Part shown: positions 39,780 through 45,834 of the stretch, in pieces | Layout of the letters: each line of letters opens with the position of its first letter | Numbering within the stretch: the stretch's first letter is position 1 | IMG/VR virus record: IMGVR_UViG_2721755712_000001 | Length of the DNA stretch: 64,000 nt | Strand: one strand, 5' to 3' | Source of the DNA: a virus | Lineage: Duplodnaviria; Heunggongvirae; Uroviricota; Caudoviricetes | Notes under the pieces: generated by a model | Told to the model about the DNA's origin: nothing | What the model saw: the letters and a program-made list of their open reading frames with translations, nothing else | The model's database searches: none | Position numbers and translations under genes: made by a program

Positions 39780-42700
39780 TTAGTTACGTTGAGTGTTTGG
39801 GTTGAGTGATCCGCCAGGGCGTTTCTCTTGAGCGATAGTCTCAAGCGCGATTGCTTTCATCCGTTGAGCGGCATTGTTCCATATGCTTTCTGTATCGCCG
39901 GATTCAGTTGTGCTACCGTCACTATGGACGTTGATCTCAATTGATACCGGAGAAAGAACATTTCCTCCTCCACTCATACCATCGGTACTGAGCGTTACAG
40001 GGATTGTTCGACCATCAGGCAATGGAACATACGCCTCATTCATATCGCCTTCCCCAAACAACGCCAATTGAGGTGAGTTGGCGATACCGCCTTTCTGGTA
40101 TGCCCGGAGCGGGATCACGCCGTCTTTTCCGAATATGCCACCATTTGCAAACTTCGGAATTGCAGGAATACCATTCGTGCCATCGGCAGCAGAACTGGTC
40201 AGATTGTTGAACCCGGAAGTTGAACCAGAAGAACCGGACATCAATCCATCGAATCCACCACTAGCCCATACTGAAACCAAACCAGATGCAACTGTCGCGC
40301 CGAAATTCAACCACTTATTACCAGAGCCGGAAGCATTAGCTCCAAGCATTGCAAACGCGGCAGACAGCGCGCCGGTAACAGAACTGAGGTTCTGCATCGA
40401 GAAGATGGAGTCCTTCACGGCTTTTGTCTCGGCATCTTTGGCTTCAGTGCTATCAAATAGCCCTGATACCCAGCTACCAATCGCATTTGTTGCAGTGCCA
40501 ATTGCGCTGGTGGTCTGCTGTGTTGTTTGCCCCAATCCAGTTACCGAACTGGACGTCTCCTTCGTGGCTTCTCCTACCGACTTGTCGCCATTAACAGTGT
40601 TGCTTATGCGCACACCTTGATTGGCAACTGCGGAAGCAACCCCGGTGAGCAAATTACCACTCTGTGAACTACCAGCTGCGGTGGCTCCCATCCCCAACAT
40701 GTTCATTAGAGGCAGCGTGATTTGCGACTTCACGACCATATTGGTGATATCTTTCAAAATGGACTGAGACAGGCTGGAGAAGCTCATCTTCCCGTTAATA
40801 ACGAAATCAGTCAGGACATCAGTTAAGCCACTAAACAAATCAGTCCAGGTGCTTTCGATCTGCTCTGCCAGGTTTTCGTATTCCAGTGCCAACTTCTGCG
40901 TCGCAGTCCCCGTCTCTTTAATAAGCGCGGTATTGCCAGCAGCAATCAGTTGATTGATTTTCTTTGTATAAAGCGCCACAACTTTAGGATCAGACGCCTT
41001 ATCACGAAGTTCTATCAACGCTTTGAGATTGCGGTTGTAGGTGTCTTCGAAATCAGCAACTTTATCTTCGCGAGACGGCGTATAGCCAGCACTAATAATG
41101 GAATCCGCCTTCGGTGCCCAAGTGGAGATCATCTGCTCAACATTGCGGCGATTAAACATCTCGCGATATTCAGGTGTCGCATTTTTGAGGTCTTCAAGAC
41201 GTTTTTTCGCCTTGTCGATCATCTCTTGAGTGATGAACTCGTTAGGAACCGCATTAGCCAAATCTGTCAGCGATTTCGTTGTATCGCGAAGAGACTGATC
41301 AAACGATACCGTAGCCTTAGAGCTTTCACCCATTTGCCCCATAAGCTGATCGGCTTTGTCCAGAGCCTTCTGGTATCCGGCTGCCAGTTTCTGTTGCGCT
41401 GCCTGTTCCTTCTTGGCCGCACGCTGCGAGGCGTTAGCTGATCGTTGGGCTGCTTTCTCGGCAGCTGCTGCATCCTGTTCACGAGCTTTAGTCAGTGCAG
41501 CAATGGCTGCGGCACGCTCTTCATCGCTCATTTTCTCCAGAGAGCTGGCGCTGGATGCTTTCTGCAAATTAAGCTGCGTCTTGAGTTGTTTAGGCCCAAT
41601 AATCGGCTTACCTTCGAAGTCCATCATCGGAGTGCCGTCAGGCAAAGTACGTTGATAAGTCGCAGAATCCATCTGGTTTCGCATATATTGCGCCAGCGCC
41701 TTCTGAGCAGCTTTATCAGTTGTACCTAACCCAAGAACATCTCCATTGATTGACACTAAGCCATTACCACTTTTGGCCGCGTTATCCCTCTTAAACTCTG
41801 CCTGAGTCAGTTCCTGAGCAACGACTTCCAAATGCTCCTGATAGCCACGAATACTTCCTTGCAGTTTCTGAATCTGCTCGGTATTTCCTTCCTTTTTCGC
41901 TTTTTCAAGCTGATCATTAAGAGTCGCGATTTGCTTCTCGGTCGCATTCTTACGAGAAGAAAGTGAATCAACCAGTTTTTGCGCAGGCTCCAGATAGCTT
42001 TTGTTTACCGTTTCACGTAACGGTGCCAATAGCTTGTTCTTTTCGTCATCCGAAAGTGAACCGTCATCCTTGATTTTCTGGATTTTCTCCAGAGCCTCCT
42101 GACGAGCTTTCACGAACGTTGCCGCAAAGTCTCTATTCTCTTCGAGTATTTTCTCTATCTGGGATTCTGCCGTCTCTTTTGCCAGACGTTTGGCTACAGC
42201 CAAATCCCCTCTGGCAATAGTTTCATTGGTTTCATCGCGTTTCTTACGAAGTTCATTTAGCTCATTTTCTATTCGCTTACGTTCATCATGATTAATCTTT
42301 ACTGTAGTTCCGGCCATACCCGGCCCATAAACCACCTTTTCGCCAGATTTTAACTCTTGTTCCTTTTGCGTGATTTGTTGCTCAAGACGCGCTTTATACT
42401 CGGCCATCTGTGCACGTTTAGCCGCCGTCATCGCTTCTGGTATTTTCCTAATCTCGTCAACGACCTTTGAAGTTTCGCTACGAAGCATGGTCATATACGT
42501 GATTAAGCCAGCAACAGCGGTCATTGCAGCAGTGAAAACAAAACCTATCGGATTCGCCGCAATAAACGCAGTCAGGCCAGCAAAAGCGCCTTTAAGCCCC
42601 GTAATCGCCCCACGGATGGCGAAAATAAGAGAGGGGATCGGAGCCAGCCCCATACGTGCCGCACGATTGAATCGGGTTACTGCTGTAGCGCCGAGGTTAA

Positions 42701-44378
42701 ATGGAGTCTGTATGGCGGTCGCCATCGTGGCAAAGGTGCTAACCATCTGGCTGCCTGCGCCAACTACCCCCATGATCCCTGCTCGCATCAGTTTGAACGC
42801 AACCATCGCGGCCACGACCTTACCGAGATTAATCACCAGCTCTTGGTTCTTTGCTAACCATTGAGCAAGCTGACGCAACCCATCGATTGCCGTTGTTAAC
42901 CCCGAACCTAAAGAATTGGCAAACGAAATCCCTTCGGCGCTATTCATGATTGAAGCCAGTTCTTTCATCCCCTTCGATAGAGAATCCAGATATCCGGCCT
43001 GACCAACCCGATCAGCAAATAACGAGAATGACGTCTGAAGTTGCGCCAGCGCACCTGTGTAGGTTTGCATCATGTCTTTCGCTGCGTTCTCATTCTCCGC
43101 ACGCAGACCAACAAACATCAGAGACAACGCCTGTTTTGCCTCAACCATACCGCTGGCAACGGCTTTAGTCAGTTCCCCCATAGTGATGCCTGCGGCGTCT
43201 GCCATTGCCTGCATCGCGTTAGGAACGGCTTCACCTAATTGCTGACGTAGCTCTTCCATTGACACAACGCCCTTACCGGACATCTGCTGAACGGCCACAG
43301 CCGCACGTTTCAACAGCTCACTATCACCACCAAAACGAGCAACGGAGTCCACCAGCGCCTTCAGAGAACCATCGGTTGGATCTAAGCCAGCAGAACGAAA
43401 CTTCACGAAGGAGTCTGTTAACGCCTGCATCGCGAACGGCGCATTTTGAGCCATGTCTACGATGTACTTCATATCATCAGCGGCAGCCTGGCCCGGGTTG
43501 GACTTCTCCTTATTCAACCCTCGAAGCATCACCCGCATACGTTCCATTTCGGCCGCAGCTTCAACAATAGGCTTCTGCCACCCAAACATGATGTCAGTAA
43601 CCGTTCTGGCTGCATCTCCGATCTCGCCAAGCAGGAAAATGTTGCCACGAAGGCCAGAGAACATACCTCCTTCGTTACTTTTACCGCTATGGCCAGAAGC
43701 GCCGCTACGCCGCCCGCTACCACCATCGCCACTTCCAGATGTACGAACGCGTACCGGCTTGCTAATCAGTTGCTGACGTCCGATAACTTCGTCCATCTGC
43801 TCACGAACCTTTTTCAGTCCCTCGGCAGCCTGACTCGTTGTGACACCCCAATTACTGAGTCGCTTCGTCGTGGTATTAAGGCGCGTATTCATGCCACTCA
43901 CGGACGCAGAGGCTTCTTTGACCTCCGTACCAAAGCGGCTTGCGCTTTTGCTTGCATAGGTCGCCCAATCAGAGAAATCATTTAGCTCTGATTGCACTTT
44001 ACGTAATGACGCGGTGAGTTTATCTACTGAAGAAGTTGTCGTATCGACGCGCTCAATCAGGGCTTTAAGACCAGAATTGAGGCTGGTGATGTTGCCACGC
44101 ATTTTACGCGTAGCATCTGAAGCAAGCTCAAAACCGGCAGCTACATCCTGTAGTTTATCTGCCGTAGAATCGAGCTTGCTTTCCAGAACGCCAATGATAC
44201 GGGCGACCGAACCCAAAGAGCGTTCAAAGGTTTGGATTTTTTGAGCAGGCTTTGTTACCTGCTCACCAAATCGAGTAAGCAGTTTCCCCGCACGATCGAT
44301 TGACGCTGTAAACTGTTTGTCTTCCAGCGACAGGATAAACTCTACGTTTTGTGACATTCCCTTGTCATCCTCTGCCAA
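39780..44378 (-). CDS. tail tape measure protein
   Basis: 1532 aa; long coiled-coil stretches, Gly-rich and hydrophobic segments; immediately downstream of the G/G-T chaperone genes. Confidence 0.85.
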   Translation of the reverse strand: MAEDDKGMSQNVEFILSLEDKQFTASIDRAGKLLTRFGEQVTKPAQKIQTFERSLGSVARIIGVLESKLDSTADKLQDVAAGFELASDATRKMRGNITSLNSGLKALIERVDTTTSSVDKLTASLRKVQSELNDFSDWATYASKSASRFGTEVKEASASVSGMNTRLNTTTKRLSNWGVTTSQAAEGLKKVREQMDEVIGRQQLISKPVRVRTSGSGDGGSGRRSGASGHSGKSNEGGMFSGLRGNIFLLGEIGDAARTVTDIMFGWQKPIVEAAAEMERMRVMLRGLNKEKSNPGQAAADDMKYIVDMAQNAPFAMQALTDSFVKFRSAGLDPTDGSLKALVDSVARFGGDSELLKRAAVAVQQMSGKGVVSMEELRQQLGEAVPNAMQAMADAAGITMGELTKAVASGMVEAKQALSLMFVGLRAENENAAKDMMQTYTGALAQLQTSFSLFADRVGQAGYLDSLSKGMKELASIMNSAEGISFANSLGSGLTTAIDGLRQLAQWLAKNQELVINLGKVVAAMVAFKLMRAGIMGVVGAGSQMVSTFATMATAIQTPFNLGATAVTRFNRAARMGLAPIPSLIFAIRGAITGLKGAFAGLTAFIAANPIGFVFTAAMTAVAGLITYMTMLRSETSKVVDEIRKIPEAMTAAKRAQMAEYKARLEQQITQKEQELKSGEKVVYGPGMAGTTVKINHDERKRIENELNELRKKRDETNETIARGDLAVAKRLAKETAESQIEKILEENRDFAATFVKARQEALEKIQKIKDDGSLSDDEKNKLLAPLRETVNKSYLEPAQKLVDSLSSRKNATEKQIATLNDQLEKAKKEGNTEQIQKLQGSIRGYQEHLEVVAQELTQAEFKRDNAAKSGNGLVSINGDVLGLGTTDKAAQKALAQYMRNQMDSATYQRTLPDGTPMMDFEGKPIIGPKQLKTQLNLQKASSASSLEKMSDEERAAAIAALTKAREQDAAAAEKAAQRSANASQRAAKKEQAAQQKLAAGYQKALDKADQLMGQMGESSKATVSFDQSLRDTTKSLTDLANAVPNEFITQEMIDKAKKRLEDLKNATPEYREMFNRRNVEQMISTWAPKADSIISAGYTPSREDKVADFEDTYNRNLKALIELRDKASDPKVVALYTKKINQLIAAGNTALIKETGTATQKLALEYENLAEQIESTWTDLFSGLTDVLTDFVINGKMSFSSLSQSILKDITNMVVKSQITLPLMNMLGMGATAAGSSQSGNLLTGVASAVANQGVRISNTVNGDKSVGEATKETSSSVTGLGQTTQQTTSAIGTATNAIGSWVSGLFDSTEAKDAETKAVKDSIFSMQNLSSVTGALSAAFAMLGANASGSGNKWLNFGATVASGLVSVWASGGFDGLMSGSSGSTSGFNNLTSSAADGTNGIPAIPKFANGGIFGKDGVIPLRAYQKGGIANSPQLALFGEGDMNEAYVPLPDGRTIPVTLSTDGMSGGGNVLSPVSIEINVHSDGSTTESGDTESIWNNAAQRMKAIALETIAQEKRPGGSLNPNTQRN

Positions 44379-44751
44379 ATATTTGCATCAGTTGCTCTTT
44401 GGCGTCAGGGTCTGCCTTATCCTGGCTTGGATCGTAGACTTTATCTGTTACGACTGGTCTTCCAATCCTGAGTTGCAAACCCTCCATGAACGCCTTCACA
44501 GCCTCGCCATCCGCCTGGGACGCACGAGCGACTTGTAAGTTGCGGACATCCTCTTCCGCACGCAGACGGTCTATATTGCGACTGAGCATCCAGAACATCG
44601 TGAGAGGAACGTTCAGTAGCTCTAATGGCGACACGGCGTAGTGAGCAACTACACGACTGAAATAGAATCCGAGATCTATTGAGACGGTCCTTGTCCCGGA
44701 TTCATCGCGGGAAATTACTTTGCCCCTTCGCCAGCCGCTTTTTCGTTTTCT
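44365..44751 (-). CDS. T segment of the tail assembly chaperone G-T fusion (reached by -1 frameshift from G)
   Basis: this frame is open from 44751 and overlaps the last 11 codons of the G ORF in the -1 frame; minus-strand A-run GAAAAAG at about 44738..44744 is a candidate shift site. Confidence 0.5.
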   Translation of the reverse strand, partial: RKRKSGWRRGKVISRDESGTRTVSIDLGFYFSRVVAHYAVSPLELLNVPLTMFWMLSRNIDRLRAEEDVRNLQVARASQADGEAVKAFMEGLQLRIGRPVVTDKVYDPSQDKADPDAKEQLMQIFGRG

Positions 44752-45032
44752 TCATCAATCACTTCCATAGCGAAGGTGAAGATCTGCTGGAGTTGCGGAA
44801 CAGTCAGTTTTTCAAGAACTTCGTCAGGTACTGAAGGGATAACCTTACGAACCAGATCTGCATAAGCTGTCACTTGCTCAACAGGAGACATGTTCATGAG
44901 ATCTTTGCCTTCCATCTGCTTGATGGAAACGAACAGACCTACCGTCATTTCAACGATGGGATATTCCTGACCGCCAAATTTGATGCTTTTCTTCGGAGGC
45001 AGAATGGAATCGAGATCGAGTAATTTGGTCAT
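44715..45032 (-). CDS. tail assembly chaperone, lambda G-like
   Basis: 105-aa acidic protein between the major tail protein and tape measure genes. Confidence 0.7.
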   Translation of the reverse strand: MTKLLDLDSILPPKKSIKFGGQEYPIVEMTVGLFVSIKQMEGKDLMNMSPVEQVTAYADLVRKVIPSVPDEVLEKLTVPQLQQIFTFAMEVIDEENEKAAGEGAK

Positions 45033-45087
45033 TGGTTAAAATCCTTTTAAAAGAGAGGCCCATCCTGAGCCTCTGCTTAATTACTGA

Positions 45088-45834
45088 TTAATCTGCGGGG
45101 TTAATCGTTACTGACTTAGTTGCCTTCTTACCACCGCTATTGCTGGTGAAGGAAATATTTGTAGAACCCTGCGCCACACCACGTACCAGACCCGTTTGAT
45201 CTACCGTGGCCTTTTCCTGGTCTTCGGATTCCCAAACACCGGTTTTGTCTGCGGCATCAGCTGGAGTGATTTCGGCTGTCAGTTGCACAGTTTCTCCAGC
45301 TTTTACGGTTGGAGATTCCGGTGAGATCGACACAGTTTTTACCGGTTTAGGACCGCTCATTTTGCCCAGAACGCCTTCATCATCCGGGTATGCGCTGAAC
45401 TGAACAGAGAACACACGAACATCATCAGACTGGTAGGTCATAGTGAAGTTGCCCGCGGTTGCCGCTTTCGGGATGGTCAACACATAGTCGGTGGTGTCCT
45501 GCGGAGTCAGAACCAGCTCCTTCGCCACATCAATCAGGTTAACGCCCTGTGCAGATGTGATCGTGACAGAGTTGTCATCTTCGCTCAGAGTAGAACCAGG
45601 CATCAGGTCAACCATGTTTTGGAGTACAGACTCAGCCAGAGGCGCGGTGATGGTAATGTTGCGCCCCTGAACTAATTCGGAAATTACGGTCTGCCCCAAC
45701 TGATCGACGGTGACTTTCAGCGTTTCAGTGGCTACTTCAACCTGAACACCACCTTTGGTGTAACCCAAATCCACACCACCAAACGACACCTTACAGGCAC
45801 CAAGTTTGATGTTTTTTACATGGGTATTAGACAT
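45088..45834 (-). CDS. major tail protein with C-terminal Ig-like (Big_2-type) domain
   Basis: start at internal Met MSNTHVK preceded by AAAGGAG; C-terminal TVSISPESPTVKAGETVQLTAEITP...ATVDQTGLV fits a bacterial Ig-like fold. Confidence 0.7.
   Translation of the reverse strand: MSNTHVKNIKLGACKVSFGGVDLGYTKGGVQVEVATETLKVTVDQLGQTVISELVQGRNITITAPLAESVLQNMVDLMPGSTLSEDDNSVTITSAQGVNLIDVAKELVLTPQDTTDYVLTIPKAATAGNFTMTYQSDDVRVFSVQFSAYPDDEGVLGKMSGPKPVKTVSISPESPTVKAGETVQLTAEITPADAADKTGVWESEDQEKATVDQTGLVRGVAQGSTNISFTSNSGGKKATKSVTINPAD

Follow-up and report, generated by a model that had tools for sequence, protein, structure and literature searches.

The locus raises the question of how a conserved reading frame that lacks a start codon in most relatives is translated. 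It lies on the minus strand in the tail module carried by a tailed phage sequence (IMG/VR virus record IMGVR_UViG_2721755712_000001, Caudoviricetes; the whole stretch analyzed, 64,000 nucleotides (nt) long, is called the window). There, an open reading frame (ORF) named G is followed by a second frame, T, as in the tail chaperones G and G-T of phage lambda. The G and G-T proteins of the window are almost certainly made by the known type of -1 ribosomal frameshift, production of the fusion being a prediction. The fusion is probably the result of a -1 slip by one tRNA at GCA_AAG_UAA, the very end of G. The features on which this reading depends were the following.

44715..45032, minus strand: G ORF, 105 amino acids (aa), putative tail assembly chaperone (0 frame), with the stop TAA at 44717..44715; from the ORF list and the sequence; phrog_893, unknown function.
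44365..44718, minus strand: T frame after the shift, from GUA 44718..44716 onward, 117 codons and TGA 44367..44365; from translation; phrog_1131.
44718..44724, minus strand: proposed slip site G_GCA_AAG, with the core hexamer GCA_AAG at 44723..44718 and the tetramer A_AAG at 44721..44718; G[CT]AAAGTA[AG] is conserved in 111 of 111 loci.
44715..44717, minus strand: UAA stop of G, immediately 3' of the slip codon, a possible 'shifty stop'; TAA or TAG is flush with AAG in 111 of 111 loci.
44738..44744, minus strand: GAAAAAG (GAA_AAA_G in the 0 frame), the slip site of the original prediction, rejected as the main site by the relatives.

The 3' end of G reads ...GAA AAC GAA AAA GCG GCT GGC GAA GGG GCA AAG TAA. 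T is in the -1 frame of G, and two TGA codons of that frame (44757..44752) stand just before the open stretch, which then runs from 44751 to the TGA at 44367..44365 with no stop between and overlaps G by 34 nt (44751..44718). The ORF list and the sequence bear out this geometry as it had been described in the original prediction, namely a -1 frame open from 44751 to 44365 across a 34-nt overlap with the end of G. The GAAAAAG motif was likewise placed correctly, at 44744..44738. However, it had been called the only homopolymeric candidate in the overlap, which was not confirmed. A further candidate, A_AAG at 44721..44718, had been overlooked; this tetramer, the strongest in E. coli, lies inside G_GCA_AAG (44724..44718) and immediately 5' of the G stop.

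Relatives were gathered with single-protein scans; an alignment of eight G-T members had no stretch conserved enough to serve as a query. The close tier comprised 86 loci with 85-95% protein identity from phage records, IMG/VR and bacterial genomes, the last including Kluyvera, Yersinia pestis and one metagenome-assembled genome labelled Bacillota. An intermediate tier of 25 loci (about 52-75% identity), Photorhabdus and Raoultella among them, was obtained via G homologues and further IMG/VR scans. These two tiers make up the enterobacterial clade of 111 loci, with 38 distinct sequences, to which the counts below refer. A distant tier contained 21 loci with 23-43% identity from phages of Pseudomonas (Nickievirus), Rhizobium and Stenotrophomonas.

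All 111 enterobacterial loci, down to about 52% protein identity, retained the -1 ORF, the junction and, at the end of G, the 9-mer G[CT]AAAGTA[AG] (44723..44715 in the window). This 9-mer was preceded by G in 87 loci, by C in 14 and by A in 10, and the codon 5' of AAG was always GCA or GUA, the latter in 14. As expected of the NNA_AAG class of slip sites, A_AAG stood in the 0-frame register GCA_AAG or GUA_AAG with the -1 frame open across it in every locus, and, as in a shifty-stop layout, TAA or TAG was flush with AAG in every locus as well. By base-pairing rules, the tRNA of the 5' codon has no re-pairing option, since GCA would move to GGC, AGC or CGC and GUA to CGU or AGU, all non-cognate. 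The overlap measured 10 nt in 42 loci, 25-28 nt in seven, 34 nt in 55 and 94 nt in seven. Inside the 10-nt overlap (for example A GAA GCA AAG), which is that of phage SSU5, the step from AAG to AAA is the sole possible -1 re-pairing. No canonical X_XXY_YYZ heptamer was found in the overlap of the window, where the original prediction had rightly reported its absence, nor in any of the 111 enterobacterial loci. The conserved GYA_AAG_UAR site lies 14-20 nt downstream of GAAAAAG. The arrangement occurs in elements of Escherichia, Salmonella, Klebsiella, Kluyvera, Yersinia, Photorhabdus and Raoultella and in phages of Pseudomonas, Rhizobium and Stenotrophomonas, and its retention exceeds chance.

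Substitution patterns indicated that T is coding. Among 28 distinct sequences, the variable columns of the T frame 3' of the G stop numbered 16/28, 9/27 and 23/27 at the three codon positions, a coding signature, and the frame encoded the conserved peptide V(I/V)(S/T)R.E.G...SID(L/F)GFYF.RV. In most of these sequences ATG, GTG and TTG were missing from the first ~28 codons of T, and the most conserved T motif of the family lay upstream of any possible start codon. Such conserved codons without a start codon argue that T would have to be entered from G. As is typical of tail chaperones, the second ORF begins inside the first in the -1 frame, with an overlap of 34 nt here and 10-94 nt in the relatives, and has no start of its own in most relatives.

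The distant relatives point to the same position for the shift. All relatives examined, with identities between 100% and about 25%, had T in the -1 frame of G, and 20 of the 21 distant loci carried a canonical heptamer at the homologous position, 3-27 nt before the G stop. Examples are G_GGA_AAA in hairong, G_GGA_AAG (also the lambda motif) in V1VFA-S, C_CCA_AAG in nickie, G_GGA_AAC in RHEph10 and RHph_N1_10, and A_AAA_AAA in ANB28. After the shift these relatives read ...(G/P/K)K, and the conserved (I/V)D(L/F)xF motif follows 8-15 residues later. The window follows the same pattern, reading ...GAK/VISRDESGTRTVSIDLGF (a slash marks the junction) with similar spacing to (I/V)D(L/F)xF. Given the heptamers at the homologous place and the matching pattern after the shift, G_GCA_AAG of the window reads as a degenerate family heptamer that would have retained its Lys half and lost its P-site half. 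The original prediction had held that it would be refuted by relatives with a conserved canonical heptamer lacking here. The distant clades do have such heptamers, which relocates the slip site and leaves the frameshift standing. Synteny, the conserved -1 frame, coding-type substitution and the distant heptamers all support the G/G-T frameshift; GAAAAAG as its site was the part that failed. In published surveys many annotated tail-chaperone overlaps are also without a canonical heptamer (PMC10885494).

One Nickievirus-like locus (L123, ~960-970; IMGVR_UViG_3300011948_000046) has ACG GGG GAA GCG TAA in place of G_GGA_AAR or C_CCA_AAG. Its GGGGGAA is the 'fivetwo' motif that is common in actinophage tail-chaperone frameshifts (PMC10885494).

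The slip that we regard as probable would proceed as follows. G would be translated normally and terminated at UAA (44717..44715), and a minority of ribosomes would step back one base on GCA_AAG (44723..44718). The tRNA-Lys would release AAG and re-pair with the overlapping AAA, GUA would be read next, and the T frame would then be translated to 44365. The product would be a 222-aa G-T fusion with the junction ...AAGEGAK/VISRDESG.... Only the Lys-tRNA would be able to re-pair, the preceding Ala or Val codon having no -1 partner, so this would be a slip on an A_AAG tetramer or NNA_AAG hexamer and not a tandem X_XXY_YYZ slip. The pause would probably come from the flush stop codon together with an irregular stem-loop 8 nt downstream. 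The tRNA-Lys may slip while it occupies the A site (hexamer mode) or, with the stop waiting, the P site (shifty stop), and the same protein would be made either way. The level of the fusion, the choice between A and P site, and what the stop codon and the stem-loop contribute are all points that we infer.

Enterobacteria have a single tRNA-Lys(UUU). Both GCA and GUA are read there by cmo5U34 tRNAs with extended wobble, which would fit a rule relating NNA_AAG shifting to the 5' codon. According to that rule, established at CGA_AAG of B. subtilis cdd and IS1222, shifting is governed by how flexibly the tRNA of the 5' codon wobbles, since this tRNA has to free the third-position A (PMC5009743). 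No other Z_ZZN tetramer shifts nearly as readily in E. coli as A_AAG, which reaches up to 5.6% with a strong downstream pseudoknot and is used by insertion sequence (IS) elements (PMC4066793). Since lambda requires only about one G-T per 30 G (PMC5009743), a slip site working at a few percent would be adequate.

A candidate for the downstream stimulator was predicted in the T frame.

44652..44709, minus strand: candidate stimulatory stem-loop beginning 8 nt after AAG; from minimum free energy folding.

Its lower stem pairs CGCGAU (44709..44704) with GUCGUG (44657..44652), and its upper stem pairs GAAUCCGGGA (44703..44694) with UCUCGGAUUC (44674..44665). The predicted energy is about -21.5 to -22.6 kcal/mol, by the stretch folded, with a z score of only -1.34 against dinucleotide shuffles. 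Across the 28 sequences the upper helix was paired in 89.6% of cells, compared with 21-63% when the partners were slid. Compensatory changes were seen in three pairs (UA/AU/GC; GC/AU; GC/GU/AU), and the covariation score was 0.271 versus 0.184 +/- 0.014 in shuffles. RNAalifold recovered the same core helix, and the native 75 nt were stabler than synonymous recodings in 26 of the 28 sequences (mean z -1.34). Taken as a stimulator, the stem-loop is suggestive. A scan of 44300..45100 against Rfam gave no family match.

Among the distant relatives, two Rhizobium phages gave strong downstream folds (z -3.4 and -2.2) and three Nickievirus-like loci gave intermediate ones (L120, L124 and L125; z -1.8 to -2.3). 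The folds of the other seven distant loci examined were unremarkable, and we make no claim for a family-wide RNA element. The strong hairpins, in RHEph10 (L008, ~1540-1580) and RHph_N1_10 (L010, ~1500-1545), lie downstream of the G_GGA_AAC heptamers, and their 3' arms fall on (D)F(F/G)F codons, echoing the enterobacterial stem-loop. Two other candidate elements in the window were discarded. A small hairpin 5 nt past the stop (UCCCG/CGGGA) did no better than shuffles (z -0.07). An upstream Shine-Dalgarno-like stimulator, GGCGAAGGGG (GGUGA or GGAGA in relatives), lies about 4 nt from the heptamer, where -1 stimulation of this kind requires a spacing of roughly 10-14 nt, and it is also explained by conserved G-E/D codons.

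Other routes to T were weighed against the A_AAG slip. In the GAAAAAG motif of the original prediction (44744..44738), which in the 0-frame register GAA_AAA_G is an A_AAA tetramer and not a heptamer, tRNA-Lys would move from AAA 44741..44739 to AAA 44742..44740 and give the junction ...EENEK/SGWRRGKVISRDE.... The corresponding Glu-C junction peptide would be NEKSGWRRGKVISRDE, where the A_AAG shift would give GAKVISRDE. Lys-tRNA re-pairs perfectly at this motif, the -1 frame is open from 44751 in the window, and 87 of the 111 relatives retain GAAAAAG. A_AAA is also one of six tetramers with measurable shifting in E. coli, although the weakest of the six (PMC4066793). However, in 33 of these 87 relatives, SSU5 included, GGC is replaced by GGT, which puts a -1-frame TGA between the motif and T, and the further 24 relatives lack the A-run altogether, their E-K-A being replaced by E-A-A. 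GAAAAAG is thus unusable in 57 of the 111. It is also not where the canonical heptamers of the distant relatives sit, and its conservation in the 86 closest loci is explained by conserved E-K residues. We therefore regard it as a very improbable slip site. A tandem slip of two tRNAs on the degenerate G_GCA_AAG, with tRNA-Ala partly re-pairing on GGC, would use the same site and give the same product as the one-tRNA slip. The window and 87 of the 111 loci have G before GCA, so the first anticodon position could still pair, and heptamers of an intermediate kind, for example G_GU, G_GA and C_CA(A), have been described (PMC5009743). Against this, 24 relatives have A or C at that place and 14 have GUA as the P-site codon, which leaves no conserved rule of P-site re-pairing, and by base-pairing rules the move from GCA to GGC leaves a central G-G mismatch. 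Participation of the tRNA-Ala is unlikely.

Without any frameshift, T would be a separate small protein made by internal initiation (at GTG 44634 or a later ATG) or by re-initiation at the G stop. Termination-reinitiation occurs in tightly packed phage operons, a GTG does exist at 44634, and all annotated GenBank relatives list two separate hypothetical proteins. However, about 28 conserved T codons, including the family-wide SID(L/F)GFYF, precede the first possible start, ATG, GTG and TTG are all missing there in many relatives, and this start-less 5' part of T shows coding-type substitutions. The sequence before GTG 44634 (CACUACGCC) has no Shine-Dalgarno-like run, and the first -1 codons past the stop (GUA, then AUU, AUA, GUU, GAA or AUC) are not conserved as any start codon. 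Separate translation would also not account for a T frame that is always -1 relative to G, nor for the slippery heptamers of the distant relatives, and it is quite unlikely. A transcriptional origin, in which RNA polymerase slippage adds or removes an A and brings T in frame, is the least credible. Productive slippage takes about 8-9 or more identical bases, but the A runs here have just three (CAAAG) and five (GAAAAAG), and the latter is dispensable in relatives. Slippage on long A/T runs does occur in some phage and IS genes (PMC5009743), yet its operation at this junction is extremely improbable.

The change from GGC to GGT is synonymous (Gly; GCT GGC GAA at 44733..44727 in the window) and makes a -1-frame TGA 10 nt before the G stop in 42 of the 111 loci, including SSU5 (L002). 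This TGA could be a 'guard' that ends premature -1 shifts and fixes one junction, or it could be neutral. An ENA protein of 139 aa (P0003) reading EENEK/SGWRRGKVISRDESG (or ...EENEK/SGWRRGKVISRDESGTRTVSIDLSDSISVV), as expected of a shift at GAAAAAG, was not taken as evidence, because its frame changes again (IDLSDSISVV). The frame changes are most likely homopolymer indel errors of the assembly and not a natural variant.

Several points weigh against the one-tRNA slip and against the identification of its products as chaperones. The fusion is a prediction from the sequence. In E. coli the A_AAG tetramer by itself stays near background without a stimulator (PMC4066793), so the model leans on the candidate stimulators. 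Of these, the stem-loop is unexceptional against dinucleotide shuffles, its arms fall in conserved codons (DESG, IDLGF) of sequences that share descent, and two central mismatches interrupt it in one relative (L099). The flush stop could have been retained because without it G would be 13 residues longer. The -1 path from GAA_AAA_G is open in the window, which would allow a minor second junction there. G, T and G-T had no usable match in Pfam or NCBIfam, chaperone families included, and a sequence search of PDB was also empty; the PHROGs of G (phrog_893) and T (phrog_1131) are both listed as 'unknown function'. One distant member matched Phage_TAC_7 below threshold (E=0.055). An AlphaFold model of G, with a predicted local distance difference test (pLDDT) value of 72.9, consists of a beta-hairpin followed by four helices. 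Its top BFVD matches included several predicted 'tail assembly chaperone' structures, all weak (E of at least 1e-3; template modelling (TM) score 0.4-0.67). A PDB fold search of the model gave no match with E<0.1 and did not recover the HK97 chaperone, whose structure has presumably been solved. The assignment as chaperones is putative and draws on gene position and frameshift architecture instead of homology.

The gene position is that of tail chaperones, as G and T are two consecutive ORFs flanked by the genes for the major tail protein and the tape measure. Along the minus strand, the genes run major tail protein with Big_2 (45834..45088), G (45032..44715), T (to 44365) and tape measure (44357..39780).

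45088..45834, minus strand: major tail protein gene with a C-terminal Big_2 immunoglobulin (Ig)-like domain fused in frame (Pfam Big_2, E=5.8e-26; PHROG major-tail/Ig families); the start at 45834 is taken from the annotation of Cyrano and SSU5.
39780..44357, minus strand: tape measure protein gene, 1525 aa, with ATG at 44357, 8 nt past the T stop; from the ORF list and the annotation of Cyrano and SSU5.

Tape measure proteins of relatives had Pfam matches to TMP_3 and Tape_meas_lam_C. The program-made ORF list extends the tape measure ORF to TTG 44378 (minus strand), where it overlaps the end of T; the annotated ATG 44357 is the more plausible start. An 851-nt stretch around the junction was 100% identical to Escherichia phage CMS-2020a (CP053388), 99.8% to phage Cyrano and 90.2% to Salmonella phage SSU5. 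On these identities the window is a portion of an SSU5-like phage-plasmid that carries the tail module.

In annotated GenBank relatives, G and T are always two separate 'hypothetical proteins', and none has a joined G-T coding sequence. T is started at GTG 44634 (phage Cyrano) or at an ATG further down (SSU5), and the SID(L/F)GFYF motif is thereby cut away. In OV696614, NC_018843, PV340561 and MK422451 the annotated starts are GTG or ATG codons 28 to ~40 codons inside the conserved T frame.

The arrangement resembles lambda G/G-T in having overlapping ORFs between the major tail protein and tape measure genes, with the second in the -1 frame and without its own start. The shift would lie near the 3' end of G and add a T domain of ~115-120 aa, and little fusion relative to G would be enough (Levin, Hendrix & Casjens 1993; Xu, Hendrix & Duda 2004, 2013, 2014; as summarised in PMC5009743). 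However, lambda uses the tandem heptamer G_GGA_AAG, whereas the site here has lost its P-site half (G/A/C_G[C/U]A_AAG) and its slip codon directly abuts the stop; unlike lambda-type chaperones, the proteins also have no detectable homology to Pfam tail-chaperone families. The motif belongs with those of IS3 (CCA_AAG), IS1222 (CGA_AAG) and B. subtilis cdd (CGA_AAG), in which tRNA-Lys alone re-pairs from AAG to AAA and the 5' codon ends in A and does not re-pair. Percent-level efficiency at these sites needs an RNA structure, expected about 5-9 nt downstream, and the class works in enterobacteria (Sharma et al. 2014, PMC4066793; Licznar et al. 2003, as summarised in PMC5009743). Those sites serve transposases or give an incidental shift in a cellular gene, with defined pseudoknots or hairpins as stimulators, whereas here a putative phage tail chaperone is concerned, the stem-loop is predicted and the 5' codon is GCA or GUA.

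The E. coli dnaX gamma/tau shift is likewise a -1 slip of tRNA-Lys from AAG to AAA with a hairpin a few nt downstream, but it has the full heptamer A_AAA_AAG and a Shine-Dalgarno-like stimulator 10 nt upstream, whereas the GGNGA run here, at 4 nt, is too close. The spacing rule for such -1 stimulators was reportedly set out by Larsen et al. in 1994. With the 'shifty stop' (Weiss et al. 1987, as cited in PMC5009743) the site shares a slippery codon directly 5' of the stop, where slow termination allows the peptidyl-tRNA to re-pair; the best-known natural cases (prfB, antizyme) are, however, +1 shifts. We infer the role of the stop codon here from its invariant adjacency.

A second site of this layout was observed in the major tail protein gene of 13 relatives (L097:1158-1194, L098:1159-1195, L101-L110 and L113). 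Their 163-aa major tail protein ORF ends ...GCC CCA AAG TAA/TAG, a canonical C_CCA_AAG flush with the stop, and the Big_2 Ig-like domain follows in the -1 frame (PK/V.VTGVTV...). C_CCA_AAG_UAR at this junction is a probable second -1 frameshift with an NNA_AAG_UAR layout like that of G/T, although, unlike the G/T site of the window, it has the full canonical heptamer. The shared layout counts in favour of the slip proposed at G/T. At the equivalent place in the window (45354..45337, minus strand) tail protein and Ig domain are fused in frame (GGT CCT AAA CCG GTA AAA), with no slip site and no need of a shift. Ig-like domains are said to be appended to phage structural proteins by -1 frameshift (work attributed to Fraser et al., 2006).

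Both the phenomenon (lambda-like G/G-T) and the motif class (IS3/IS1222/cdd) are known, and the understanding of tail assembly or frameshifting is unchanged; in the SSU5-like group the shift is unannotated, and its slip site is corrected here. A search of the literature available to us found no paper linking SSU5-like elements with a G/T frameshift. The value for annotation lies in a fusion missing from the GenBank records of a widespread group (SSU5, Cyrano, PhiR41_1 and phage-plasmids of Klebsiella, Yersinia and Kluyvera), some members of which carry resistance genes. The arbitrary downstream starts in these records remove the most conserved motif of T, and frameshift finders based on heptamers will miss an A_AAG-stop site. 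The canonical heptamers of the Pseudomonas, Rhizobium and Stenotrophomonas phages and the one-tRNA A_AAG flush with the stop in the enterobacterial clade form a natural series, which could be used to weigh P-site re-pairing, an adjacent stop and a downstream hairpin in a frameshift of a few percent. Our tentative suggestion, which we hold to be possible rather than likely, is that the SSU5-like lineage swapped the ancestral tandem heptamer for a cassette of A_AAG, flush stop and long stem-loop, in which the peptidyl-tRNA-Lys would slip while the stop waits (a -1 shifty stop), and that this cassette may be used twice, at G/T and, in some members, at the major tail protein/Ig junction. If so, termination efficiency and the release-factor status of the host would set both the chaperone ratio and the Ig decoration of the tail.

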